The notes below the pieces were generated by a model. The model saw nothing but the letters and a program-made list of their open reading frames with translations. It made no database searches and had not been told where the DNA came from. The translations under genes and the position numbers were made by a program. Below are positions 3,941 through 17,098 of a DNA stretch of 17,098 bases, piece after piece (position 1 is the first letter of the stretch; every line of letters starts with the position of its first letter). The stretch covers positions 1-17,098 of the forward strand of contig CAZHPN010000136.1 of the NCBI GenBank assembly GCA_964534375.1. Reading direction: 5' to 3'. Source of the stretch: an uncultured bacterium. GTDB taxonomy: Bacteria > Lernaellota > Lernaellaia > Lernaellales > Lernaellaceae.

Positions 3941-4085
3941 GCCGTTTCCTCCCGAGCCATCGTTTTGGCCATTATCGACCGCGATTTGCCGCGCGTCCAG
4001 ACGCGGCCGCGATGGCGGCGCCGGCTTGTCACCCCGCGTGCGCTGCGCTAACAATCTGCGCAACGCCGTAATCGCCCGAGGTCCC

Positions 4086-6176
4086 ATGGCCGCCGAAAAA
4101 TCGAACGCCGCGACGCACTCCGCCGGTGAGCGATTTTTCTGGGCCGCGCTGCTGATCGCCGGCGTGGGGCTCTACGCGGTTCGCTTTGTCTCGCATTACT
4201 ACGCGTTCGACGTCGAAACCGCGAAAAACGGCATGCTGGCGCGCGGCATCATCGAAGGCCTGGCGGCGCCGTGGTGGAATTATCAATACAAACCGTTTTC
4301 GCACGGCACGGCGATCTTCGGCCTCGCGCTGACGCCGTTTTTCTATTTCGGCGGCTCGAAATATTTATGGACAAAGCTCCTCTCCGGCGCGATGGTCGTC
4401 CTCGGCGCGATCTTTTGGACGGTCGCCGTGCGGCGTTGCTGGGGCCGCAAGCCGGCGATCGTTTTCGCCCTCCTGTGCATTCTGCCGCCGCCGCGTTTCG
4501 AGGCGCTGCTGCACGCGTCGTGGGCCAATCACAGCGAAAGCCTGTTCTTCACGGGCCTCTTGCTGCTGTTGTTCGCCAACAAGCCCAATCCGTCGGCGCG
4601 GTCCGGCGCGCTGATCGCGGCCGGCCTGCTCGGCGGTTTCGCCTGCTTTTTTTCGTTCGAAAACGCGCTCTTCTTCGCCGCCCTATTGGTCGGGCTTGTC
4701 ATCTGCCACGGCGTCGGTCTGGCGCGCCGCCTTCTGTTCTTGACGATTCCCGCGTTTCTCTTCGCTTTTTCGCCGCACTTTCTGACGCCGACGTCGTTTC
4801 CGCACGCCATGGTCGATCTCGCCCAGGGCGCTTCCGTGAAAGCGTGGTTTTGGGAACGATACGCCTCGTTTTTCAAGATCCTCTGGACGCTCGCCTGCGA
4901 ATACAAATATCCGCTTTTGTCGAAGGCTTTTTTCCTGGCCGCGGTTTTGGGATATTTCCTGCTCGTCTGGCGAACGGTTCGCACGTGGAACGCCGGGTTG
5001 CCGAAGCTCGACCTGCTGGGCGTCGCGCTGCTGGCGCACTCGGTCATTTTCTTCGGGGCCTACGGTTTTTCCCATTTCTACATGGCGCCGAGCGCGGACT
5101 TCAAAGGCTTCGGCGCCCTGCAATACCTGGCGGTGATTTTCCCGTTCTGGCTGGCGTTTCTGTGCCAGGCCGCGCGTTCGGCGCCGGGTTTTCTGGCCGC
5201 GGCGCTGGCCGCGCCGTTTCTTTTCGGCGGCGCGCTCCATGTCGCCGCCGACCCGCTGCCCGACGCCCGCACGCTGCGCTACGGCTGGGACACGCTGACG
5301 TTCTTCCGCGGCGACGACAACGATTATCTCATCTACGTCGCGCTGCCGCCCACGTGGGGCGCCGAATTCGACGAAACGGCGCGGTCGGTCGAAGCGCTGA
5401 CGCCGGCGTGGCGCTGCGACGGGTTCATCTCCGCCGGCGCGGGGCTCTCGTTTTCGCAGGTCCATAACGCGCTCGCCGGCAGCGCATTACGCGACCGCGA
5501 ACAGGCCGGCTGCCTGGTGCGCGGTTTCGCCGGCCACGAAGCCGCCGGTTTCGCCGGCGCCAAGACCATAGAATCGGTCGACGAGTTTCAATTGCGTCGG
5601 GATTTGGCGCGCTTCGCAGCGGACGATCCGCTCTTGGCGCAAAACTACTTCGAGGGCTTTGGCGCCGGCTTGCTGCCCTCGCCGTTCCGCTTTGACTCCG
5701 CGATTTTCGATTTTTACGGCTGGCTGATCGCCGGCGGCGACCTGAATCAAACGTCGCCCGACATTCAGCGCGTTTGCTCGCATATCCGCTATTATTTCGA
5801 ACTCGCCGGGCGCGAGGCGCCCGACCCGGCGGCGGCCCGCGCCTCTCTCTTTCGCGGTTTCGGCAAATGGCTGGGCGCCATTGCGGCCGCCGCCCGCGTC
5901 CGACTCCGGCCGGAGGACGAACCGCCGGAGCGAGCCTTTTTGCGAATGATCGCCGCGCTCACCGGCGCGCCCGTAACCGACGCCGAAATCGCGGCGCTCC
6001 GCCGCGGCGTGGCGGCGGGCGAGGCCCACGCCTTGCAAAATTACGCGAACCGCTTTCAGGTCGTGCCCCCCTTTGACGGCCTCGACCTGCTCATCGACGA
6101 GGCCGCGAAAAACGGCGTGGTCATCAGCAAAGTCGCCGGCCCGCGCGAGGAATATCGGCTCGACGAGAAAAAGTGA
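4086..6176 (+). CDS. Polytopic membrane protein, probable GT-C fold glycosyltransferase (ArnT/PMT-like) with a soluble C-terminal domain
   Basis: Many hydrophobic segments in the first ~390 aa. Acidic D-x-E in the loop after TM1 (YYAFDVETA), plus later NHSES motif. GAGGT RBS before the ATG at 4086. The family call is inferred from topology. Confidence 0.6.
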   Translation: MAAEKSNAATHSAGERFFWAALLIAGVGLYAVRFVSHYYAFDVETAKNGMLARGIIEGLAAPWWNYQYKPFSHGTAIFGLALTPFFYFGGSKYLWTKLLSGAMVVLGAIFWTVAVRRCWGRKPAIVFALLCILPPPRFEALLHASWANHSESLFFTGLLLLLFANKPNPSARSGALIAAGLLGGFACFFSFENALFFAALLVGLVICHGVGLARRLLFLTIPAFLFAFSPHFLTPTSFPHAMVDLAQGASVKAWFWERYASFFKILWTLACEYKYPLLSKAFFLAAVLGYFLLVWRTVRTWNAGLPKLDLLGVALLAHSVIFFGAYGFSHFYMAPSADFKGFGALQYLAVIFPFWLAFLCQAARSAPGFLAAALAAPFLFGGALHVAADPLPDARTLRYGWDTLTFFRGDDNDYLIYVALPPTWGAEFDETARSVEALTPAWRCDGFISAGAGLSFSQVHNALAGSALRDREQAGCLVRGFAGHEAAGFAGAKTIESVDEFQLRRDLARFAADDPLLAQNYFEGFGAGLLPSPFRFDSAIFDFYGWLIAGGDLNQTSPDIQRVCSHIRYYFELAGREAPDPAAARASLFRGFGKWLGAIAAAARVRLRPEDEPPERAFLRMIAALTGAPVTDAEIAALRRGVAAGEAHALQNYANRFQVVPPFDGLDLLIDEAAKNGVVISKVAGPREEYRLDEKK

Positions 6177-6340: not shown

Positions 6341-6420
6341 AATGGCGAATGGCGAATGGCGAATGCAGAATTGCCGACGTCGCCCGAAATTCGCCATTTG
6401 CCATTCAACATTCTACATTC
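6341..6420. repeat. Heptamer tandem repeat forming an imperfect inverted repeat
   Basis: (AATGGCG)x3 AATGCAG on the left arm and ATTCGCC ATTTGCC ATTCAAC ATTCTAC on the right arm, between two convergent genes. Confidence 0.85.
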
Positions 6421-6553
6421 CGGTTTGCCGTCCCAAGAAACGTATAGTTCGCAGCCATCGGTGGTCGGCAGGCCGAGGTGGCATTTATCGACGATCTCTA
6501 TAGCCCGGGCCCCGCCCCTTCTACTCCGCCGGCCGGCATCGAAGTCTGCGAGT

Positions 6554-7987
6554 TCAAAATTTGATTTGGCCCGTGCGCGCCAACCGGCGGGCGTTGCGAA
6601 CCACGGCTTCCCGCGCCCTTTTCACGTCTGCCGCCGAGGCGGCGCCGGTACGCTCGACTTCCGCGGCGACGATCGGCGCTGCGTGAACCGGCAGGCAACG
6701 GAGCAATTTCTCGCGCGTTGCGTCGTCGGCGGCAGACAATGCGGCGGCCGCATCGCCCACCGCGGTCGCCGCGAGAACGCGGCGCAGGTCGGCGTCTTCC
6801 AGCCGAAGCAGGTCGGTGAAGGCGAGGCGCTGCCGGCCCATCTGCGCGGCCAACTCGGGTTCGTCTTTTGTCAGCTTTTCCAGAATGGCGTCCGCGGTTT
6901 CGTCCGGCAGATCGCCGAGAATGTCAGCGACGGCCGCGACGCCGCCGGCCGGTTCGCCTGGGTCGGCGGCGAGCGCCGCCAACTCGCGGCCGAGAACCTC
7001 GATCACTTCCTCCAACGCGCCGGGCGCCGCCTCGTTCAGCCGCGCGACGCGGCGCACGACTTCGGCGCGCAAATCCGGCGCGAGGCCCGCGACGACTTGC
7101 GCCGCGGCGTCGGGCGGCAGGCGGGCCAGGACAAAAGCGATCGTTTGCGGATGTTCGCGCTGCAGCACCGCGGCGATCGCCCGCGGGTCGCTGCGGCGCA
7201 CGCGTTCAAGTTGACGCTCGAACGCCAGACGCCGCAAGACGTGCCGCGCCTCCGCCGGGTCCAGCGCCTGATCGACGAGGTTCGCGGCGAAGTCGCCGCC
7301 GGCCGGGGCCAGGTGCGCTTCCCGCGTCAGCCGGCGGATGAATTCATCGAGAATCGCCTGCATGGTTTCGGGCGCGACGCCGTCGATGCCGGCGATGGCG
7401 CCGGCCGCAACGCGGACCTCGTCTTCGTTCAGCCGGCGGAAAACCTCGATCGCTAGATCCTCGCCCAGAAACATCAACAAGGCCGCGGCTTTTTTGGCGC
7501 CGGGAACCGTCCGCCGCCCGCCGGCGGTCTCCTCTGGCGCGCGTTCGGGCAGGTTCAGCCAGCGTTTGACGACCATCGCAACCGCTTCGCTATCGTTGGC
7601 CGCAAAGCGCCGCAAATCGGCTTTTTCTTTTTGGAGTCGGCCGAGCGTTTCGGCAGGCGGCTGGCCGGTCGCGGGCGGCCGGAGGTTGGCGGCGGCGCCG
7701 CCTGCGACCAGCGCCTCGAGTTCGCCGATCGTCAGCGCGGCCAGACGTTCGGGCGGCAGGTCATACATTGGCGGGAAATCGAGCGCGGTTTTCACCCGCC
7801 CGGGCCGTCGGTAAACGACGTAGAGCAACAAACAGCCGCAGACCGCGGCGACGATCGCGAAACCGACCACGAGCCACGGCGTGGCCGCGTCGTCGCTCGC
7901 GCCGGAGAACGCTTCGGCGGCGCGCGGCGCGACGACCACCGACCACGCGGCAATCAGCGATAGCAATATCGTGCGCAATGCAGTCAT
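6554..7987 (-). CDS. fliG: Membrane-anchored FliG-like protein: signal peptide + TM + FliF C-terminal-like tail fused to FliG N/M/C domains
   Basis: FliG motifs: GAKKAAALLMFLGEDLAIEVFRRLNEDEV, REHPQTIAFVL, GGVAAVADIL, RRLARTGQI. The ~160-aa N-terminal extension has an AEA-type signal peptide, a TM helix ending VVYRRP, and LRRFAANDSEAVAMVVKRWL. Start set at ATG 7987 because ATG 8035 lies inside the sigma-54 promoter. Confidence 0.88.
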   Translation of the reverse strand: MTALRTILLSLIAAWSVVVAPRAAEAFSGASDDAATPWLVVGFAIVAAVCGCLLLYVVYRRPGRVKTALDFPPMYDLPPERLAALTIGELEALVAGGAAANLRPPATGQPPAETLGRLQKEKADLRRFAANDSEAVAMVVKRWLNLPERAPEETAGGRRTVPGAKKAAALLMFLGEDLAIEVFRRLNEDEVRVAAGAIAGIDGVAPETMQAILDEFIRRLTREAHLAPAGGDFAANLVDQALDPAEARHVLRRLAFERQLERVRRSDPRAIAAVLQREHPQTIAFVLARLPPDAAAQVVAGLAPDLRAEVVRRVARLNEAAPGALEEVIEVLGRELAALAADPGEPAGGVAAVADILGDLPDETADAILEKLTKDEPELAAQMGRQRLAFTDLLRLEDADLRRVLAATAVGDAAAALSAADDATREKLLRCLPVHAAPIVAAEVERTGAASAADVKRAREAVVRNARRLARTGQIKF

Positions 7988-8022
7988 CGACCCTGCGACA
8001 AAAAAGTCCTGAATTACGTGCT

Positions 8023-8040
8023 TAGCAAACACCATGCCGG
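8023..8040 (-). promoter_or_regulatory. Sigma-54 (-24/-12) promoter of the fliG-like gene
   Basis: Minus strand reads CCGGCATGGTGTTTGCTA: GG(8038-8037)-N10-GC(8026-8025), close to the consensus TGGCAC-N5-TTGCW, about 38 nt upstream of the ATG. Confidence 0.85.
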
Positions 8041-8052
8041 CGCGTTTGTTGC

Positions 8053-8080
8053 GAAAACCGCCTCAAATTGGCGGATTTTC
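8053..8080 (-). terminator. Hairpin, possible intrinsic terminator of the upstream Cys-rich gene
   Basis: Minus strand: CCGCC-AATTTGA-GGCGG followed by TTTT. Short stem; it could instead be a protein-binding palindrome. Confidence 0.35.
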
Positions 8081-8106
8081 CCTATGTCGGCGGCGCTTGG
8101 CCTCTG

Positions 8107-8128
8107 GCCCGTCAACATTTTGACGGGC
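8107..8128. promoter_or_regulatory. Palindromic putative enhancer (UAS), FleQ-type GTC-N8-GAC box
   Basis: GCCCGTCAA-CATT-TTGACGGGC with perfect 9-bp arms and core GTCAACATTTTGAC, about 100 bp upstream of the predicted sigma-54 transcription start. Confidence 0.65.
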
Positions 8129-8168
8129 ATGAGCGATCTGTCCAACCGTGCCGATCATGCCGATTAGC

Positions 8169-8222
8169 GTGCATTCGCGGCCTGCCCCGACGTAGCCTCG
8201 GCGAAGTCGGGTGCATTCGCGG
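8169..8222. repeat. 12-bp direct repeat GTGCATTCGCGG flanking a 30-nt hairpin-containing insert
   Basis: Copies at 8169-8180 and 8211-8222. The insert contains CCGAC...GTCGG. The exact reverse complement of the 12-mer occurs at 13337-13348. Confidence 0.75.
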
Positions 8223-8232
8223 TTCCAGCGCT

Positions 8233-9429
8233 TCAATCGACCTTGTTTCGCGGCGTTTCGCGGCGCCGATACGCGGCCATTTCGCGGTCGGCCTCGGCGA
8301 GGATCGTTTGCATCGACCGCGGCGCCGCGTCGCCGTGGACGCAGCCGCAGCCAATGCATTGGCGCGCGCCGCGAATCGGGAACTTGTCGCAAGGCAACAG
8401 GCGGCCCGCGGCGTCGACGCGCCGGCCGTGTACGGCGTCGTTGGGGATGAGCGATTGCTCGGAGCCGCCCTGGTAATGCCAGTTGGTCAGCACGCAGCCG
8501 CCGGCGTTCTCCGGCGTCGGGCACGAACAAATGCAATAGGGCGTGTCGAAGAATTTCATCGCCGAAAAGACGATGCCTTTGGCCAGGTAGAAGGTCGTCG
8601 CCAGTTCGAAGGCCAGTTCCTTGTGCAAGACGAACGACTTGCGATTGGCGTGCAACGACCGAATCCAGGTGGGCGAGTACTTGTCGGCGAGAACGGGCAG
8701 AAATTCCCAATCCGGGTAGGTCGATGCCAGCAACGTCTCCAGCCTGTATTCCGGCGACCCGGCGGCGCGCCCGGCGGCGAGCCGCGCGAACATCTCCCGG
8801 TAGCGCGGCGCGGTATCGGGCAGCGCGCCGTGCGCCTCGATCAGCGCGTCGTAGCGCCCCATGATCCGGTCGAGCAGCAGGCGGTTGTCCGCGTCGGAGG
8901 CGATCGTAAACACGCGGCCGTCGTCGCGGAGCAGGTCGTCCGCCACCTTCGCGCTGCGGCAGGTGCAGTGGCCCATGAACACCAGCGGCGAATCGAGCAG
9001 ATCGCGCCACACGGCTTGCAGCGGCACGACGCGGCCGTTGAGAATGTACTCCAAGCCGATCTCGCGCAGGCGGGCGAACACCTCGCCCGGCATCGCGGCG
9101 ACCCACCACGGCGCGAGCACGAGCAACTCGTGGATGACCGGCGTCGTCATTTCGCGCCGCCAGAGCAGGTAATCGCCGATCGCGTCCGCCATGCGCCGCG
9201 CGACCGAGCGGTTGACCGCCGGCGGCGAGTCCTCGACGATCGCCCGGTACAGGCCTTCGAGCAGAGTTTTCTTCTCGACGCCGGCCAGTTCGCGCGGCAG
9301 GCTCTCCGGATTGGCGCGCAGCCGCACATCTTTGATCCGTTCGACCAGGTTTCGGATTTCGTTCACCGCCATCGGCAGCCGCCGGCGCAGTTCCAGTTCT
9401 TCCGGACTTTCAAATTCGTGATTGGTCAA
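8233..9429 (-). CDS. Cysteine-rich hypothetical protein, probable Fe-S or metal-binding
   Basis: Motifs GRVVPL...MGHCTCRS, KGIVF...YCICSC...GGCV, and C-terminal PCDKF...CIGCGC. GAGG RBS supports the TTG start at 9429; the ORF-track start at 9462 lies inside a repeat element. Confidence 0.7.
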   Translation of the reverse strand: MTNHEFESPEELELRRRLPMAVNEIRNLVERIKDVRLRANPESLPRELAGVEKKTLLEGLYRAIVEDSPPAVNRSVARRMADAIGDYLLWRREMTTPVIHELLVLAPWWVAAMPGEVFARLREIGLEYILNGRVVPLQAVWRDLLDSPLVFMGHCTCRSAKVADDLLRDDGRVFTIASDADNRLLLDRIMGRYDALIEAHGALPDTAPRYREMFARLAAGRAAGSPEYRLETLLASTYPDWEFLPVLADKYSPTWIRSLHANRKSFVLHKELAFELATTFYLAKGIVFSAMKFFDTPYCICSCPTPENAGGCVLTNWHYQGGSEQSLIPNDAVHGRRVDAAGRLLPCDKFPIRGARQCIGCGCVHGDAAPRSMQTILAEADREMAAYRRRETPRNKVD

Positions 9430-9448
9430 GATGGCCTCATTAGGTTTG

Positions 9449-9520
9449 CACCACAGAGGCACAGAGGAAACAGAGATTTCGATGTAAGGTCCTCTCCGTG
9501 TTCTCTGTGGCTCTGCGGTT
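9449..9520. repeat. REP-like imperfect palindrome built of CACAGAG/CTCTGTG units
   Basis: Left arm CACCACAGAGGCACAGAGGAAACAGAG, right arm CTCCGTGTTCTCTGTGGCTCTGCGGTT. Related half-elements at 3053-3091 and 11592-11620. Confidence 0.8.
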
Positions 9521-9571: not shown

Positions 9572-10966
9572 TTATTGGTAGTCGAGCCCTTTTTTCTTCA
9601 GTTTTTCGACGAGCGTCGTGCGTTTCAGGCCCAGCAGTTGGGCCGCGAGGTTCTTGTTGCCGCGCGCCTTCGCCATCGCCGCGGCAATCAGGCGGTTCTC
9701 GAAATCGTCGACCAGGCCGTTGAAATCGACGCCGGCCTCCGGAATCTCGGCCGCCTCGCCCGCGGGATCGATCTTCGCAGCCAGGTATTTTTCCGGCAGA
9801 TCGCCGAGCGCGATGCGGTCGTCCTCCGCCAGGATCACGAGGCGTTCGATCAGGTTCTCCAGTTCGCGGACATTTCCCGGCCACTCGCACCGCCGGAAGA
9901 CATCCAGCAGTTCCGGGCCGAATGGCCGCAATTTGCGATGGCGCAGGCGGCAGAAATTCTCCAGAAAGTAATTGGCCAGCAGCGGGATGTCATCGAGGCG
10001 CTCGCGCAACGGCGGAATGGCGATCGGAATCACCGACAGCCGATAGTACAAATCTTCGCGGAACTTGCCCTGCGCGACCAAATCCTCCAGGCGGCGGTTG
10101 GTGGCGGCGATCACGCGCACGTCGACCTTCTTCGCGCGATTGGCGCCGACGGGCTCGAACTCATGGGATTGCAACACACGCAGCAGCTTGACCTGCAGCG
10201 CCGGGCTCATGTCGCCGATTTCGTCGAGGAACAGCGTCCCGCCGGCCGCGGCCTCGAACCGCCCGATGCGGTTGGTCGTCGCGCCGGTGAACGCGCCCCG
10301 CATGTGGCCGAACAGTTCGGACTCCAGCAGCGTTTCGGGCAGCGCGCCGCAGTTGACCGGCACGAGATAGCGTTCGCGCCGCTTCGAGTTGAAGTGCAGC
10401 GCGCGCGCCACCAGTTCCTTGCCCGTGCCCGACTCGCCCTGAATCAGCACGGTCGAATCGGTGTCGGCGACCTTTTCGATCAGGCGAAACACTTCCTGCA
10501 TCGGCCGCGAATCGCCCACCATGTTTTCGAAGCGGTATTTCTGCCGCAGTTGCGTCTTGAGCGTGACGTTTTCTTGCAGCAGTTCCTGGTAGCGCAGGGC
10601 GCGGTGCAGAACGATCAGCAGTTCTTCGACGCGGAACGGATGCGTCAGGTAGTCGAAGGCCCCGTTTTGCATCGCCTGCACCGCCGCCGGGGCCGCGCCG
10701 GCATCGGCCACGACCACGATCATCGTGCGCGGCGCAATCGTCTTGAATTCGCGCACCAGGTCGAGGCCGGCGGCTTGCGGCGACCGCAGGTCGGCGATCA
10801 CCAGTTCGCAAAGATGCGCGCGAAACGCGTCGAGCGCCTCGGCGCAATCGCCCGATTCGACGACGAGAAACCCCTCGCCCGCAAGATGCCGGCGCAACTC
10901 CGCGTTTTCGGCGCAATCGCCGCCGACCAGTTGAATCGTGGCCCGGCGCGATTCCGTCATCGCCAT
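9572..10966 (-). CDS. Sigma-54-dependent transcriptional activator (receiver-like + AAA+ + Fis-type HTH), FleQ/FlrA-like
   Basis: GESGTGKE Walker A, ESELFGH, GAFTGA, LFLDEIGDM Walker B, FREDLYYRL, WPGNVRELEN, and HTH AAQLLGLKRTTLVEKLKK. Start is ATG 10966 or 10960. Confidence 0.93.
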   Translation of the reverse strand: MAMTESRRATIQLVGGDCAENAELRRHLAGEGFLVVESGDCAEALDAFRAHLCELVIADLRSPQAAGLDLVREFKTIAPRTMIVVVADAGAAPAAVQAMQNGAFDYLTHPFRVEELLIVLHRALRYQELLQENVTLKTQLRQKYRFENMVGDSRPMQEVFRLIEKVADTDSTVLIQGESGTGKELVARALHFNSKRRERYLVPVNCGALPETLLESELFGHMRGAFTGATTNRIGRFEAAAGGTLFLDEIGDMSPALQVKLLRVLQSHEFEPVGANRAKKVDVRVIAATNRRLEDLVAQGKFREDLYYRLSVIPIAIPPLRERLDDIPLLANYFLENFCRLRHRKLRPFGPELLDVFRRCEWPGNVRELENLIERLVILAEDDRIALGDLPEKYLAAKIDPAGEAAEIPEAGVDFNGLVDDFENRLIAAAMAKARGNKNLAAQLLGLKRTTLVEKLKKKGLDYQ

Positions 10967-11699: not shown

Positions 11700-12185
11700 T
11701 TAGCAGTTCTTGATCTTCGCCACCGTCTGCGTCGTCGACCGGCCAGGCACGAGCGGAAAGCGGATAACTTTGCCGCCGTACGACTCGACGACCTCGCGGC
11801 CCACGACCTGATCGGGGCCCCAGTCGCCGCCCTTCATCAAGACATCCGGACGAATCGCCTCGATCGCGGCCAACGGCGTAGAATCGTCGAAGATCGTCAC
11901 GAAGTCGACGGCGTCGAAAGCCGCGAGCAGTTCGGCGCGTTCCTGCTCGGGATGAATCGGCCGGTCGGCGCCTTTTTCCAGCGTGCGGACCGAACGGTCG
12001 GAATTGATTGCCACGATCAGCAGGTCGCCTGCCGCCTTGGCCGCCTCCAGCAGGCGCACGTGGCCGACGTGCAGCACATCGAAGCAGCCGTTGGTGAAGG
12101 TCACTTTTTTTCCGGCGCGGCGCGCTTCGGCCAGGCGGCCCGGCAACGCGGCGACGGGAACGAGCTTGTCGGTTCGGTATTTCAT
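11700..12185 (-). CDS. rfaE2: D-glycero-beta-D-manno-heptose 1-phosphate adenylyltransferase (standalone RfaE domain II)
   Basis: FTNGCFDVLHVGHV (HxGH), AINSDRSV, KGADRPI, PDVLMKGGDW, GRSTT. Confidence 0.95.
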   Translation of the reverse strand: MKYRTDKLVPVAALPGRLAEARRAGKKVTFTNGCFDVLHVGHVRLLEAAKAAGDLLIVAINSDRSVRTLEKGADRPIHPEQERAELLAAFDAVDFVTIFDDSTPLAAIEAIRPDVLMKGGDWGPDQVVGREVVESYGGKVIRFPLVPGRSTTQTVAKIKNC

Positions 12186-12189
12186 AGCC

Positions 12190-13203
12190 TTAGGGGTAAT
12201 AAATGACTAGTTGGATGGAATGCGTGAAGTCTCTGACGTGATCTACGCTGCCCTGGAACGAGTAGCCGATCGTGCCGTGTTTGTCGACGAAACCGAGGCC
12301 GACCGAGTACATTCGCGCGCCGGAAATCTCGTCGTAGTTGAAACCGCCGCGCAACGACAGCAGTTTGACGATGACGCCCTCGGCGCCGGCCGCAAACACA
12401 AACGTCCCCTTCGGCTGATAAAGCGGGCCGTTGAGTTTTTTCAAGCCGTCGAACACCTTGGTCACTTCCAAGCTGACTGTGGCGTAGTCCATCACGTAGC
12501 CGGCGACGCCCAGCGCCACTTCGCGCCGGACCACCAACGGCTCGTCGTTGCCCAGCAGGTTGCGCCCGGTCAGGCCGACTTTGATCAGGTTGATCGCGTT
12601 GATCAACATGCCCACGTCAAAATCGAACTTGCCTTTGCCGGTCGGATCGAAATTCACCCAGCGCGCCGTCCCGCCGAAGTTCACGATGTTGGCGAAGCCG
12701 CCGGCCGCGGACAAGTCGGCCTGAAAGTCGGTGCCGTGTTTGAACAACTGGTTGGACGGGTCTTGGGTCGTGAACGCCGCGCCGACGGCGACCAGAGGGT
12801 TGACGTAGCCATCGGCGATGGCGAGGTGATACCAATCTTCGCTGAATTTCTTGTTCGCGGGCGCGGTGGGGGTCGTGTTGTTGAAATAGCCGTTGCCGAA
12901 TTCGTTGCTCGATGTTTTCTGAATCAGTTGCGGTTGCAAATAAGGGAAATCGCCGAACAGGTACTGATGGTATTCGTAGTTGATATCGAACCCCATCTGC
13001 TTGTTTTTCGTCAAGGTCGTCAGGCCCGCCGGGTTCCATTCGATCGCGTCCACGTCGTTCGCCACGGCCGTGAACGCCCCGCCCATGCCGATCGGTCTCG
13101 TGCCCCAATACATCTGCGCGTCCGCCGCGCCGACGCCGGCGAGCAAAAACGCCGCAACCAGCGCAAACAGGAGCACTCCGCTTTTTTCCCTATCGACAAA
13201 CAT
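12190..13203 (-). CDS. Outer-membrane beta-barrel protein (PorV/PorQ, UPF0164, FadL/TraF-like plug motif)
   Basis: Signal peptide ending ADA. N-terminal RPIGMGGAFTAVANDVDAIEWNPAGL plug motif, amphipathic beta-strands (LSLRGGFNY, YSVGLGF). Start is ATG 13203 or TTG 13212. Stop lies 4 nt before rfaE2. Confidence 0.8.
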   Translation of the reverse strand: MFVDREKSGVLLFALVAAFLLAGVGAADAQMYWGTRPIGMGGAFTAVANDVDAIEWNPAGLTTLTKNKQMGFDINYEYHQYLFGDFPYLQPQLIQKTSSNEFGNGYFNNTTPTAPANKKFSEDWYHLAIADGYVNPLVAVGAAFTTQDPSNQLFKHGTDFQADLSAAGGFANIVNFGGTARWVNFDPTGKGKFDFDVGMLINAINLIKVGLTGRNLLGNDEPLVVRREVALGVAGYVMDYATVSLEVTKVFDGLKKLNGPLYQPKGTFVFAAGAEGVIVKLLSLRGGFNYDEISGARMYSVGLGFVDKHGTIGYSFQGSVDHVRDFTHSIQLVIYYP

Positions 13204-13478
13204 GCGTGGCAACCTAGCGAACTTGCGTCACGGTGTCAAATTATGGACACTCGCTACGCTGCGAAGATTCAGAAATCCGCATGTCGCGGTGTTTTTAACC
13301 GCAAACGAAGCGGGATTTGTTTTTTTGTTTTTTTTACCGCGAATGCACGCGAACAAGAACGGATAAGCATTGATTGACCGTCCGATCGTGCCGCTTCGCC
13401 TGCATTAGCGGTTCCATTTCTTTCTCTAATCATTCCGGCCATCCATTCTCATTCGCCGTTCCTGCTCGGTCTGCCGCT

Positions 13479-13810: not shown

Positions 13811-13840
13811 TTGACACTATCTAACAGCTTCGTATATGGT
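13811..13840 (+). promoter_or_regulatory. Sigma-70-type promoter, predicted to give a leaderless mRNA
   Basis: TTGACA-N18-TATGGT, with 7 nt between the -10 and the ATG at 13848 and no SD sequence. Confidence 0.65.
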
Positions 13841-13847
13841 CCGCGCC

Positions 13848-14102
13848 ATGAACGGCGAACGCGAATTCTCTTTCGACGAAATGCTCGACACCGAACAGGC
13901 CGCCGATCTCGCCGGCGTGAAGCCCGTCGCAATCAGGCTCGCCATCAGCCAAGGGCGGCTGCGCTCGACGAAGCGCCGGGGCGCACGTTTCATCAGGCCC
14001 GACGATTTGCAAGCGTACATTGCGGCCAGCCGGAAGCTCACGCCAAAAGACCCGGCGCGCGCCGCGAAAAGCCGCGCCCGAAAATTAAAGGCAAAAAAAT
14101 AA
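13848..14102 (+). CDS. Small HTH_17 (excisionase/MerR-like) DNA-binding protein
   Basis: MLDTEQAADLAGVKPVAIRLAISQGRLRSTKRRGARFIRPDDLQAYI followed by a basic tail, 84 aa. Confidence 0.85.
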   Translation: MNGEREFSFDEMLDTEQAADLAGVKPVAIRLAISQGRLRSTKRRGARFIRPDDLQAYIAASRKLTPKDPARAAKSRARKLKAKK

Positions 14103-14255
14103 CGGAACGTCGAGTGCGTCGATCGGGCGCGGCAATCTTCGCCGTCTCCGTTCCTTGCCTCGCGCGAACGCCGCTGGTAAGATCGTTTCGTCACCACGGG
14201 AATATGCTTTCTGGTCAGGGAAACGAATCCAGACTTCGGGGAGGCACGGAATCCT

Positions 14256-17098
14256 ATGTCGAGTCTAACTCCGCCGACGCCAAAGAAATTCCTCACCAAC
14301 CAAGGCGACAACACTCTGAGCAAGCGGCTGGAAAAAATTCTGCCGCTGACGCATGACTTCGATTGCCTCGTAGGCTACTTTTTCATCAGCGGCTTTTTCA
14401 GGCTCTATCCCGCTCTCGAACCGGTCAGCAAAATACGAATCCTGATTGGCCTCAAGAATGAGCAGGTCGTTTATGGTCTGCTTCGGACGGCCGACAACGG
14501 CGACGAGGAAGGCGTACCGGCCACAGCGGAGGTCGTCAAAACTTTAGGCGGCATGATGCGGAGCGAACTCGTCCAGGCGTCGGATTCAGCCGACATCGAA
14601 ACGGGTGTCCGAAAATTCATCGAGTGGATTCGCTCAGGCAAGCTGGAAGTGAAGCTCTATCGGGCGCAAAACATCCATGCCAAGGTTTACATAATGACCC
14701 CGGAAAATCCAGACTCAGACTTGAATACAGGATGGGTCATCACGGGGTCGAGCAACCTCTCTCACAGCGGACTTGAAGGAAATCTGGAATTCAATGTCTT
14801 GTTAAGAGAACCAGAGGAACACGATTACGCGCTGTATCGGTTCAACGAACTTTGGGCGGACGCCGTGGACGTGAAAGACGTTCACGAGACGATCATCAAG
14901 ACCGTGGAAACGGATTCGCCGTTCGCCTTCTTCACCCCCTACGAACTCTATCTGAAATTTCTCGCGGACTATTTCCGAGACTACCTGGGCGACCGCTCGA
15001 AGTTGAACGCCGAGAACCTGCCGCAGAATTTCAAGAAGCTGCAATACCAGGAAGACGCCGTTTTCACGGCGCAGCAGATGCTCAAGTCCTATGGCGGCGT
15101 TTTCCTGGCCGATGTCGTCGGCTTGGGCAAAACCTACATGTCGGCGCTTTTGGCGCTGCAACTCGACGGCCGATGCCTCGTCATCGCACCGCCAAGCCTC
15201 CTTGATGAGAACAGCCCCGGCTCATGGCCTCGCGTGTTTCGTGATTACTGCGTCCCCGGCCACAAGTGCGTCTCCATCGGCAAACTCGAAGAGGTCTTGG
15301 AGCAAGGCGTCGAGTTCTACAAGTACGTATTTATCGACGAGTCGCAACGGTTCAAGAGCGATTCGACACAGCGTTACGAGCTTCTCGCGCGCATCTGCCA
15401 GAACAAGGGCGTCATCCTGGTTTCGGCGACTCCTTACAACAACACCATTGACGACATCTACAGTCAGTTGAAGTTGTTTCAGCCCCCTCGCATGAGCACG
15501 ATCCCGGGCCTCCGCAATCTGGAAGCATTTTTCGAGACGCTGCGAAACCGCATCAAGCCATTTCATCGGGTCGATGACGCCGAGAACTATGTCGCGGCCG
15601 TTGAGCAGAACGCCAAGGAGTTGCGCGAACGGGTGCTCAAATACGTTATGGTGCGCCGCACGCGCCGCGAAATTGAGGAATTCTACGGCGACGACCTGAA
15701 AAGACAGAAGATTTGGTTTCCAAAGGTCGCCGATCCTGTCCCGCTGCTCTATCAACTCAATCGCACGGAGAGCGAGGTTTTCTCCGACACGTTGAAAAGC
15801 ATTACGAGTTCCGACTTCCACTATGCGCGTTACCAGCCGCTGAATTATTACACTGGGCCGGTCCAAGAGCAGGCTTTGCAGGGCCAGCGCAACCTCGCCA
15901 CGTTCATGAAAATATTGCTCGTCAAACGACTCGAAAGCAGCTTTCACGCATTCAGGGAAACCATCGGCCGGTTCATTAAATCCCACGAACTTGTCTTGAA
16001 GGCGTTCGATAACGAACACTCCGTTTATACGAGCCGGAAGCATAGCAACAAGGTGCTGGAATTTTTGGAGAAGGGCGACGATGCTGCCATCGACGCTCTC
16101 ATCGAACAAGAAAAGGTAGTAAAATTCCCCGCTAGTGCTTTCACTGCGGCTTTTCGTCGAGACGTTGCGTCAGACTTGAAGACCTTGCGTGAAATTCAGA
16201 GATCATGGTCGGGCGTGAAACGAGACCCGAAATGGATCGAGTTCAGGCGGGTTCTCACTTCGGAGCCAAGGTTGAAGAAAGGGAAGCTCGTCATCTTTTC
16301 TGAATTTGCGGAGACGGCTGAGTATTTGGCCAAAAAAATTTCGACAGAGGTCGAGCGGAAGACGATCTGTTTTAGTGGGGCTTCCAGTCCTGAACTTCGC
16401 CGCGAGGTCATTGCCAACTTTGACGCGAATTTCGTGAATGCCAGAGACGATTACCGAATTCTCGTAACCACCGATGTCCTGGCCGAAGGCATGAACCTGC
16501 ACCGTTCGGCCACGGTCATCAACATCGACATACCTTGGAATCCGACCCGCATGATGCAGCGGGTCGGGCGCGTAAACCGCGTCGGCACGAAGTTCACGAC
16601 CATTTACAGTTACAACTTTTTCCCCACCGATGAAGGCGACGACGAGATCGCCTTGACGGAAGCCGCGAAGTCGAAAATCCGCGCCTTCATTACGCTGCTC
16701 GGCAACGATGCCCGCCTGCTGACACGCGACGAAGAAATTACCGCGCACAACCTATTCGACCGCATCAATTCCAAGAAAGCGGTCGAGGGCGATGCACCCG
16801 AACCCAAGAGCGAGTTGAAGTATCTGCGCCACATTCTCGACGTGAAGGAAAAACAGCCGGAGCTTTTTCAGCGCATCGTCAACTTGCCGCGGAAAGCGCG
16901 CTCAACCCGCGCCCACGCGCCGGAGCCAACACCGGCAGATCGCCCGGATGCCATTCCGGCGCCAAGCCGCCCGGCTCTCATCACTTATTTTCGCCAAGGT
17001 CGGCTCGACAAATTTTTCCGTTCCCATGACGGCAATGACTACGCCGACGAACTCGACTTCTTCACGACGGCCGAAACTCTCGAAACCACGGTCAAGGA
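14256..17098 (+). CDS. PLD-like nuclease domain fused to an SNF2-like superfamily-2 helicase, 3'-truncated by the window edge
   Basis: Absent from the ORF track because there is no stop in the window; translated by hand. GGGGAGG RBS, MSSLTPPTPKKFLTN..., VGYF, IHAKVY (CAT at 14676), TGSSNLS (GGG at 14745), NLEFNV, LADVVGLGKT, IDESQ, SATPYNN, VIFSEFAETAEYL, TDVLAEGMNL, PWNPTRMMQRVGRVNR. All motifs and the window end are in one frame. Confidence 0.92.
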   Translation, partial: MSSLTPPTPKKFLTNQGDNTLSKRLEKILPLTHDFDCLVGYFFISGFFRLYPALEPVSKIRILIGLKNEQVVYGLLRTADNGDEEGVPATAEVVKTLGGMMRSELVQASDSADIETGVRKFIEWIRSGKLEVKLYRAQNIHAKVYIMTPENPDSDLNTGWVITGSSNLSHSGLEGNLEFNVLLREPEEHDYALYRFNELWADAVDVKDVHETIIKTVETDSPFAFFTPYELYLKFLADYFRDYLGDRSKLNAENLPQNFKKLQYQEDAVFTAQQMLKSYGGVFLADVVGLGKTYMSALLALQLDGRCLVIAPPSLLDENSPGSWPRVFRDYCVPGHKCVSIGKLEEVLEQGVEFYKYVFIDESQRFKSDSTQRYELLARICQNKGVILVSATPYNNTIDDIYSQLKLFQPPRMSTIPGLRNLEAFFETLRNRIKPFHRVDDAENYVAAVEQNAKELRERVLKYVMVRRTRREIEEFYGDDLKRQKIWFPKVADPVPLLYQLNRTESEVFSDTLKSITSSDFHYARYQPLNYYTGPVQEQALQGQRNLATFMKILLVKRLESSFHAFRETIGRFIKSHELVLKAFDNEHSVYTSRKHSNKVLEFLEKGDDAAIDALIEQEKVVKFPASAFTAAFRRDVASDLKTLREIQRSWSGVKRDPKWIEFRRVLTSEPRLKKGKLVIFSEFAETAEYLAKKISTEVERKTICFSGASSPELRREVIANFDANFVNARDDYRILVTTDVLAEGMNLHRSATVINIDIPWNPTRMMQRVGRVNRVGTKFTTIYSYNFFPTDEGDDEIALTEAAKSKIRAFITLLGNDARLLTRDEEITAHNLFDRINSKKAVEGDAPEPKSELKYLRHILDVKEKQPELFQRIVNLPRKARSTRAHAPEPTPADRPDAIPAPSRPALITYFRQGRLDKFFRSHDGNDYADELDFFTTAETLETTVK

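Follow-up and report, generated by a model that had tools for sequence, protein, structure and literature searches.

The window is the entire contig C136 (17,098 bp) of an uncultured wetland bacterium of the Lernaellota, known as a metagenome-assembled genome (MAG) of 6.3 Mb in 381 contigs (completeness 94.43%, contamination 3.56%). The gene in question, fliF'-fliG, lies on the reverse strand and encodes a single protein, P0001, in which the flagellar switch protein FliG is preceded by an extension with two hydrophobic helices. Judged by homology, the extension is the second transmembrane (TM) helix of FliF, TM2, with its cytoplasmic FliG-binding tail; the ring-building region of FliF is gone. 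The flagellum was probably lost in this lineage and its switch proteins kept.

Architecture and origin of the fusion gene

A single open frame extends over 6554-8035(-). ATG codons occur at 8035 and 7987 and give products of 493 and 477 aa, respectively; the 477-aa version is P0001. An AGGG motif lies 4 nt 5' of the ATG at 7987, and the ATG at 8035 is without such a motif. Database records hold both versions, the gene callers disagreeing. P0001 consists, in order, of an N-terminal hydrophobic helix ending PRAAEA, an outside stub, a second hydrophobic helix, the sequence RRPGRVK, a cytoplasmic segment of about 90 residues, and FliG. Residues 1-26, MTALRTILLSLIAAWSVVVAPRAAEA, look by eye like a Sec-type signal with an n-region, a 15-residue h-region and an AEA end. 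TIGELEA occupies residues 86-92. The helix LRRFAANDSEAVAMVVKRWL occupies residues 125-144 (nt 7615-7556) and stands before FliG. An earlier note, drawn from the DNA letters, had described a signal-like helix, a short outside stub, one TM helix, TIGELEA and this pre-FliG helix. All of them lie where it had placed them, the stub measuring about 12 residues against the ~10 claimed.

In the FliG part, PF14842, PF14841 and PF01706 each exceed their cut-offs, and the three-domain N-M-C architecture of FliG is present. TIGR00207 scores 195.7 bits, below its equivalog cut-off of 226.7. MgtE_N (Pfam) also matches the FliG part (E 2e-9). Residues 1-160 have no match in Pfam or NCBIfam. Between Met137 and Leu170 no in-frame ATG, GTG or TTG is present, and the first internal start candidates (TTG170, TTG171 and ATG172) fall within the conserved KAAALLMFLG helix. 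There is thus no separate FliG start at the usual place, which speaks against the separate translation start near 7500 that the earlier note had considered.

The structure was predicted with AlphaFold2 (AF2) from an alignment of 126 rows, made up of the query, 122 FliG or FliF-FliG proteins and three relatives' FliF sequences. The mean predicted local distance difference test score (pLDDT) is 82; it reaches 85-97 in the FliG domains and 86-91 in the tail helices (residues 112-131 and 133-145), and is low in the TM region and the linkers. Foldseek retrieves FliG structures at a probability of 1.00. Single domains superpose at 1.1-1.5 Å (3soh_B, 1qc7, 4qrm_B, 8ucs_H), and the whole-chain root-mean-square deviation (rmsd) is high because the domain orientation differs. 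The packing of the tail on FliG-N that the earlier note had proposed was weakly supported by a complex test of residues 105-150 against 155-262: the score is 0.54, against 0.01 for the best of three controls, on a test passed by 58 of 80 solved complexes and by 2 of 110 mismatched pairs; just 7 of the 80 solved complexes pass at 0.60 or lower, as do both of the passing mismatches. The runs share at least 60% of their contacts, and the partner pLDDT is at least 61.

Relatives of the same family, found in a search of 40 related genomes, carry canonical fliF followed by fliG in ordinary fliF-fliG-fliH operons. Residues ~28-156 of P0001 align with the C-terminal end of their FliF (about the last 125 residues). 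By BLASTP, the extension matches the FliF C-terminus in all six family relatives (identity 30-38%, E 4e-10 to 7e-5); in one of them, residues 29-144 correspond to residues 424-547 of a 550-aa FliF. The homology begins just before TM2 and extends to the C-terminal ...VRKWLKED. About 375 FliF residues, roughly 45-418 of the relatives' protein, are missing. These include both ring domains that the relatives' FliF possesses, YscJ_FliF (PF01514) and YscJ_FliF_C (PF08345); no YscJ_FliF match is found in P0001 or elsewhere in its genome. Residues 125-475 align with residues 573-935 of an engineered FliF-FliG chain (8z4d), across the FliF/FliG joint. The first 26 residues have no detectable similarity to TM1 of the relatives' FliF. 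A search of PDB sequences with residues 1-165 returned a single irrelevant match (E 2); the homology of the extension is drawn solely from the relatives' genomes. It bears out the earlier note on the extension being TM2 and tail of FliF with no ring-building region, and the self-anchored FliG proposed there would follow from it.

The relatives' fliF either overlaps fliG or stops 10-15 nt short of it, and in two of them both genes are in the same frame with one stop between. The 21-residue linker of P0001 has about the length expected from read-through of such a junction (six relatives compared). Upstream, a sigma-54 enhancer-binding response regulator is conserved as a remnant of synteny with the relatives' flagellar cluster. 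Between this activator and fliF the relatives carry genes for a TPR protein, a kinase and a second activator, flgC and fliE; here a lone 409-aa orphan open reading frame (ORF) is found. Downstream of the fusion there is no fliH, no fliI and none of the genes that come after them in the relatives. A maximum-likelihood tree places the FliG part within its own family, as sister to the relative G004 (support 99/78), which indicates vertical descent; its terminal branch measures 1.91 substitutions per site against 0-0.12 in the six family relatives. From gene order and phylogeny, the fusion arose in place, by a lineage-specific deletion and fusion of the ancestral fliF-fliG pair. The earlier note had held a deletion that fused a decaying pair to be fatal to its proposal; a lineage-specific deletion and fusion is indeed indicated, but of a pair that is not decaying, as domains N and M are under purifying selection (see below).

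Table 1. Features of the fusion gene and its upstream neighbours in the window.
Feature	Position	Strand	Basis
Whole fliF'-fliG fusion ORF, 477 aa + stop	6554..7987	-	Identical protein on 4 contigs (NCBI, JGI/IMG, ENA)
Residues 1-26, signal-peptide-like or TM1-like helix ending AEA	7910..7987	-	Sequence by eye; AF2 helix 2-29, pLDDT ~60-70
Residues 27-38, putative short extracytoplasmic stub, aligned with juxtamembrane residues before FliF TM2	7874..7909	-	Alignment
Residues 39-59, predicted TM helix homologous to FliF TM2, followed by RRPGRVK	7811..7873	-	BLASTP and alignment; AF2 helix 36-59
Residues 60-150, FliF cytoplasmic tail by homology	7538..7810	-	BLASTP, 6/6 family relatives; FliF part of 8z4d; pLDDT 86-91
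Residues 112-131 and 133-145, predicted FliG-binding helices	7553-7654	-	Similarity to FliF tail
Residues 151-161, linker in place of the old fliF stop, intergenic bases and FliG N-terminus	7505..7537	-	Junctions of 6 relatives
Residues 162-257, FliG_N	7217..7504	-	Pfam E 6e-29; conserved columns retained
Residues 268-340, FliG_M, EHPQT 278-282 and R313 intact	6968..7186	-	Pfam E 4e-26; Foldseek 3soh_B, rmsd 1.1
Residues 370-476, FliG_C, fold retained, hinge and torque charges altered	6560..6880	-	Pfam E 1e-20; Foldseek 1qc7, rmsd 1.3-1.5
409-aa Cys-rich orphan ORF, CxCxC and CxGCGC near C-terminus, just upstream of the fusion	8233-9462	-	No family match
Sigma-54 enhancer-binding response regulator, synteny remnant	9575-10966	-	64-72% identity to the activator in relatives' flagellar cluster

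The fusion is not an assembly artefact. The identical protein is encoded on four contigs from three archives, the longest of 102,904 nt. Of the words sampled from nt 6400-8300, 86-99% recur in each of three wetland runs and 43% in a fourth. No RNA run is among those listed as containing them, which carries no information on expression. Run X2 yields one contig of 2462 nt over 6664-8300 with 0 differences and 0 gaps; run X3 yields pieces over 6400-7080 and 7218-8300 with 0 differences. The runs counted (X2, X3 and X4; X1 is left out because this DNA may come from it) belong to three studies of 2017 wetland samples, perhaps of one campaign. No differences occur in the parts covered by contigs of the three other runs.

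Distribution is narrow. Of 1.84 billion representative proteins, the closest one other than the query itself has ordinary length and shares 33% identity with it. The 80 best loci in a search of 185,579 species genomes all lack this architecture, so that the homologues of like architecture which the earlier note had suggested surveying were not found there. A word-index search with P0001, over 8000 candidates, gave no protein but P0001. Further atypical natural FliG fusions (P0124, P0049, P0066, P0033 and P0017) are singletons or near-singletons. They include, by eye, one with a sulfatase-modifying-enzyme-like domain, a FliF-like helix and FliG (688 aa), two with a FliM-like domain, a FliF-like helix and FliG (593 and 601 aa), and one soluble FliF-tail and FliG. 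P0017 (431 aa) joins a single TM helix and a FliF helix to a FliG whose C-domain motifs are canonical; it is a singleton on a contig of 2849 nt and could be a fragment.

Flagellar genes not found and genes retained, with selection on the latter

With the relatives' flagellar proteins as tblastn queries (E up to 5), only the fusion and the activator were matched in the window. No other flagellar structural gene is present there, as the earlier note had seen; its description of an orphan FliG holds within the window but not for the genome, where contigs C32 and C48 still carry fliM, fliN and flhG.

FliG_C has one match in the genome, the fusion gene. No matches are found to YscJ_FliF, FHIPEP (FlhA), Flg_bb_rod or Flagellin_N. 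Flg_bb_rod is matched in all seven family relatives (six matches each in six of them and two in one that is 84% complete), and Flagellin_N in five of five. By tblastn with the relatives' proteins, no match in the genome is found for FlgE, FlgD, FliK, FliH, FliE, FlgC, MotA, FliL, FliO, FliP, FliR, FlhB or FlhA. FliI, FlhF and FliA give paralog-level matches only (24-31%), those of FlhF being solely of the signal recognition particle type (26-28%). MotB matches only OmpA-like domains (32-38%). The canonical fliF-fliG-fliH operon that the earlier note had suggested looking for was therefore not found in this genome by the criteria of YscJ_FliF and FliH matches, and is present in the family relatives. 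Among 17 genomes of the class searched, this is the sole FliG-positive one without rod proteins. For a C ring on a membrane-supramembrane (MS) ring with an export gate, no FliF ring domain, FlhA, FlhB, FliP or FliR is found in the genome.

Two FliMN_C matches stand at the start of C48, where the C-terminal two thirds of FliM, FliN and a MinD/ParA ATPase (Pfam) follow one another. The N-terminus of FliM is on C32. The ends of the two contigs overlap by 53 nt, making fliM whole (~320 aa); beyond the overlap, the C32 end (1-48) is apparent adapter sequence, presumably of the Illumina type, and the assembly therefore has fliM in two pieces. The ATPase shares 56.5% identity with FlhG of the relative G005, whose gene order is fliM-fliN-fliO-fliP-fliR-flhB-flhA-flhF-flhG-fliA; G003 and G001 have a matching run of ORF sizes around fliM (sizes only, unannotated). 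Here the flhG frame opens 15 nt after fliN. Since fliN and flhG adjoin on one contig, fliO-flhF were deleted and not lost in an assembly gap. Behind flhG, C48 2009-4270(+) carries an N6/N4 DNA methylase and then a GGDEF diguanylate cyclase; relatives have fliA after flhG.

The retained set comprises the FliF-tail::FliG fusion, FliM, FliN, FlhG and one activator. FliG, FliM and FliN, the components of a C ring, are all encoded intact. FliM retains its N-terminal LTQDEIDALM peptide and LGGAG loop, FlhG the deviant Walker A motif SGKGGVGKT and a C-terminal amphipathic helix, and the SpoA domain of FliN is nearly unchanged. CheW domains are encoded on C24 and C28. MinC_C exceeds the Pfam cut-off in none of nine genomes of the group (G000-G005 and G008-G010).

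The retained proteins have diverged unequally. Identity to the relatives, with that among the relatives themselves in parentheses, is 57-67% for FlhG (61-69%), 58-76% for FliN (73-78%), 64-70% for the activator (66-70%), 37-44% for FliG (70-96%) and 37-42% for FliM (64-97%). By this measure constraint is normal on FlhG, FliN and the activator, and FliG and FliM are strongly accelerated.

Within FliG the divergence is likewise uneven. Columns were taken as conserved where at least 70% conserved in the 126-row alignment. In the N and M domains, P0001 retains 31 of 37 such columns, against 32-34 in the six relatives; in the C domain it retains 16 of 31, against 30-31. E278, H279, P280, Q281, R313, G348 and G349, belonging to the EHPQR motif and the Gly-Gly linker, are retained. 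The hinge MFVF is changed to RLAF. In the torque helix K418S, R435H, E442A and GPVR to GAAS are found, at residues taken here, from the E. coli literature, to be stator-contact charges. The 'complete FliG' of the earlier note is thus complete in fold, with all three Pfam domains, and incomplete in its hinge motif and torque-helix charges. Over residues 160-477, no gap columns occur in 318 against six relatives.

A neutral simulation was run 2000 times from the gene of the sister G004 down to 43% identity; it is crude, since it treats all sites alike, allows no indels and starts from a single proxy ancestor. Only 24 of the 2000 runs remained free of stops (mean 4.2 stops). Retention of N and M columns relative to G004 is 32 of 37 as observed, against a simulated mean of 17.3 and maximum of 28; the observed value was reached in none of the 2000 runs. 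Retention in the C domain (17 of 31) is inside the neutral range. Identity to the sister is 0.57, 0.70 and 0.47 at codon positions 1, 2 and 3. On these sequence comparisons, the FliF-binding and FliM-binding domains (N and M) are under purifying selection and the stator face is free to drift. Constraint on N and M with drift of C is what would be expected of a protein that works with FliM, FliN and FlhG and no stator.

Further genes of the window show no flagellar similarity by the search above. The 409-aa ORF upstream of the fusion belongs to no family and has a poor Atlas model; only its last ~50 residues match short ORFs in two genomes of the same class. The sequence TGGAACCGCGAATGCA at 8212-8227(-), upstream of fliF'-fliG, has the GG-N10-GC spacing of a sigma-54 promoter but was rejected as such, being apparently a dispersed repeat: the exact 16-mer occurs at six genome sites, eight sites fit TGGAAC-N5-ATGCA, and at four sites TGGAACCGCGAATGCA is followed by one or more further CGCGAATGCA copies. 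A one-base variant with like spacing lies at 13401-13416(-), upstream of a PorV-like gene. Convergent to fliG, 4083-6176(+) encodes a polytopic membrane protein of ~700 aa without Pfam or NCBIfam match. A paralog (33% over 474 aa, E 9e-42) is present directly upstream of fliM, in three tandem copies on C32 688-6961(-). This family occurs on ~25 contigs in ~30 or more places (tblastn), several near sigma-54 activators; as it is so widespread in the genome, its presence beside both fliG and fliM was set aside as weak evidence. Upstream of the activator, on the same strand, 11700-13212(-) holds a PorV/PorQ-like outer-membrane protein (below the NCBIfam cut-off) and then a cytidylyltransferase-like gene. 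At 13836-17098(+) an excisionase-like helix-turn-helix ORF precedes a gene that is cut by the contig end, encodes more than 947 aa with PLD-like nuclease and SNF2/helicase domains, and may serve defence or belong to a mobile element.

Proposed role and competing explanations

The retained set is probably best read as an exapted, non-rotating, membrane-tethered switch-complex scaffold, a remnant of the flagellar rotor. Of the two roles offered in the earlier note, a C-ring-like scaffold outside the flagellum remains the best reading, and modulation of motor assembly is abandoned, no motor genes being found in the genome. The sequence comparisons show the architecture of the fusion, its descent from fliF-fliG, the intactness of fliM, fliN and flhG, the failure to find the other flagellar genes, and purifying selection that differs by domain. 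From these we infer the topology, binding, oligomeric state and cellular role of the fusion as follows. The flagellum would have been lost and the fliF-fliG pair trimmed in place into one gene. FliF would have lost its periplasmic ring-building region and retained the anchor and the C-terminal helices that co-fold with FliG-N; with loss of the fliF stop the anchor would have become fused to FliG. The N-terminal helix may insert into the membrane or be cleaved after AEA. TM2 would span the inner membrane, with the positive RRPGRVK inside and FliG cytoplasmic, and the tail helices would pack into FliG-N in the manner of FliF:FliG complexes. FliG-M would meet the GGxG loop of FliM through its EHPQR surface, and FliM would then hold FliN. 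The N-terminal LTQDEIDALM peptide of FliM would be free for FlhG and/or phosphorylated CheY (CheY-P). The EIDAL peptide of FliM is a binding site for both. Any oligomer would come from FliG-FliG and FliM/FliN contacts, as no ring-building motifs are present. Such an assembly could not turn, the torque-helix charges being lost and no stator, MS ring or rod having been found.

The preferred job of such a scaffold would be that of a membrane docking or positioning platform for the MinD-like ATPase FlhG. Alternatively, it could be a chemosensory output platform or could draw FlhG off the conserved activator by titration. That a ring-less, stator-less FliG-FliM-FliN complex on a FliF stump positions or titrates FlhG, perhaps also reading CheY-P, for instance in division-site placement, is put forward tentatively and is rather doubtful in its particulars.

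Several points weigh against a working scaffold. The score of the complex test is weak, and as the like complexes 5tdy and 5wuj are solved the pass may reflect the predictor's memory of such structures. The very long branches of FliG and FliM also fit strongly relaxed selection, the functional residues of FliG-C look neutral, and the simulation that speaks for constraint is the crude one described above. The fusion occurs in just one species-level genome, with no relative above ~45% identity among the 1.84 billion representatives and 185,579 species genomes. The MAG is in 381 contigs, with 3.56% contamination and 5.6% missing. In Campylobacter jejuni, which offers a precedent, a fliG mutant has little or no minicell phenotype and FlhF is needed, according to the accessible text of PMC3228812; no FlhF was found here.

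It is unlikely that fliF'-fliG, with fliM, is a decaying leftover, non-functional since a recent loss of the flagellum and still unbroken. A terminal branch of 1.91, where those of family relatives do not exceed 0.12, would suit decay, as would the identity of 37-44% where relatives share 70-96%, the loss of conserved C-domain positions at the neutral rate, the TIGR00207 score under its cut-off, the restriction to one species, and a high G+C content, which makes long open frames common. Decay is, however, hard to reconcile with 318 columns free of gaps and a frame free of stops, with a retention of N and M columns that no neutral run attained, or with codon-position identities ordered second, first, third. 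For FlhG and FliN the pace of evolution is normal for the family. No partner-binding motif has been lost (FliF tail, EHPQ, R313, Gly-Gly, and GGxG and EIDAL of FliM), and the deletions flank fliF'-fliG and the fliN/flhG interval, yet spare exactly these four genes.

Less likely still is a lone membrane adaptor or regulator. The FliG part would then act by itself, like the FliG-like N domain of MgtE, in no complex with FliM and FliN, and the retention of fliM, fliN and flhG would be unrelated. The MgtE_N match and the location of fliF'-fliG and fliM-fliN-flhG on different contigs, with different neighbours, are in keeping with this. The EHPQ/R313 FliM-binding surface is nevertheless retained while other conserved residues drift, and FliM retains its GGxG loop and is accelerated like FliG, as co-evolving partners would be.

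That the organism is flagellated, with the missing genes in the unassembled or unbinned 5.6% and the fusion an accessory or regulatory FliG paralog, is very improbable. The MAG is incomplete and one of its contig breaks splits fliM itself, but the fusion occupies the ancestral fliF-fliG position beside the conserved activator and is the sole FliG_C match. The direct succession of fliN and flhG on one contig points to fliO-flhF having been deleted, not missed; no rod/hook domain is matched, where most family relatives have 6 matches each, nor is flagellin, and the stator-contact residues are lost. A chimeric contig joining a fliF fragment to fliG, a general risk of metagenome assembly in a genome with adapter on an unrelated contig end, has practically no probability, since the X2 and X3 pieces show no differences and four contigs from three archives encode the same protein.

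Comparison with known systems

Canonical FliF and FliG, as in 5tdy and 5wuj, share with P0001 the TM2 helix, a tail with two FliG-binding helices, three FliG domains, EHPQ, R313 and the Gly-Gly linker. P0001 differs in being one chain, in having no periplasmic ring domains, in its RLAF hinge and in the replacement of four torque charges (K to S, R to H, acidic to A, R to S). The canonical motor also has a stator, a rod and an export gate, none of which was found in this genome.

FliF-FliG fusion mutants of Salmonella exist. Natural full-length FliF-FliG fusions of 790-920 aa are sporadic in the database (P0005, P0053, P0069, P0121). A full-length FliF-FliG protein, FliFG, has been engineered in Vibrio (PDB 8z4d, 8z4g; PMC10941966 and PMC11481574, in their accessible parts). 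These fusions resemble P0001 in the covalent joining of the FliF C-terminus to the FliG N-terminus; they keep the whole of FliF and form MS rings in flagellated cells, whereas here ~375 FliF residues are missing. Neither a ring-less FliF-tail::FliG nor the retention of FliG, FliM, FliN and FlhG as a set was found described in open-access papers and preprints. Such a minimal membrane anchor for C-ring proteins could serve the study of C-ring assembly without an MS ring, and the split imposed by selection, between the parts of FliG still needed (FliF- and FliM-binding) and the stator face, amounts to a natural dissection of its interfaces.

In C. jejuni, FlhG with FliF, FliM and FliN blocks polar division, and this control is independent of the rod, sigma-54 and single export components, as given in the accessible part of PMC3228812. 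The components (FlhG, FliF, FliM and FliN) overlap with those present here: FlhG, bearing an intact deviant Walker A motif and a membrane-targeting helix, occurs with FliM and FliN, and no MinC is found in the genomes searched. C. jejuni differs in having complete flagella. The set retained here would give FlhG and the switch complex a specific candidate function outside motility.

Lysobacter enzymogenes is non-flagellated and has retained flagellar genes (PMC9927559, PMC7688988; accessible parts). Alike is the survival of part of a flagellar set after loss of the flagellum, with another use; in the accessible text of PMC9927559 the export apparatus is retained and fliG, fliM, motA and motB are lost, the opposite of the subset retained here. 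Surveys report rotor proteins in filament-less genomes and ask about another use, the accessible text giving no worked case (PMC12199754). Here the retained set is exactly the switch complex and its assembly ATPase, with the surrounding deletions mapped. If the proposed reading is true, the switch half of the flagellar motor survives in this lineage as a machine of its own.

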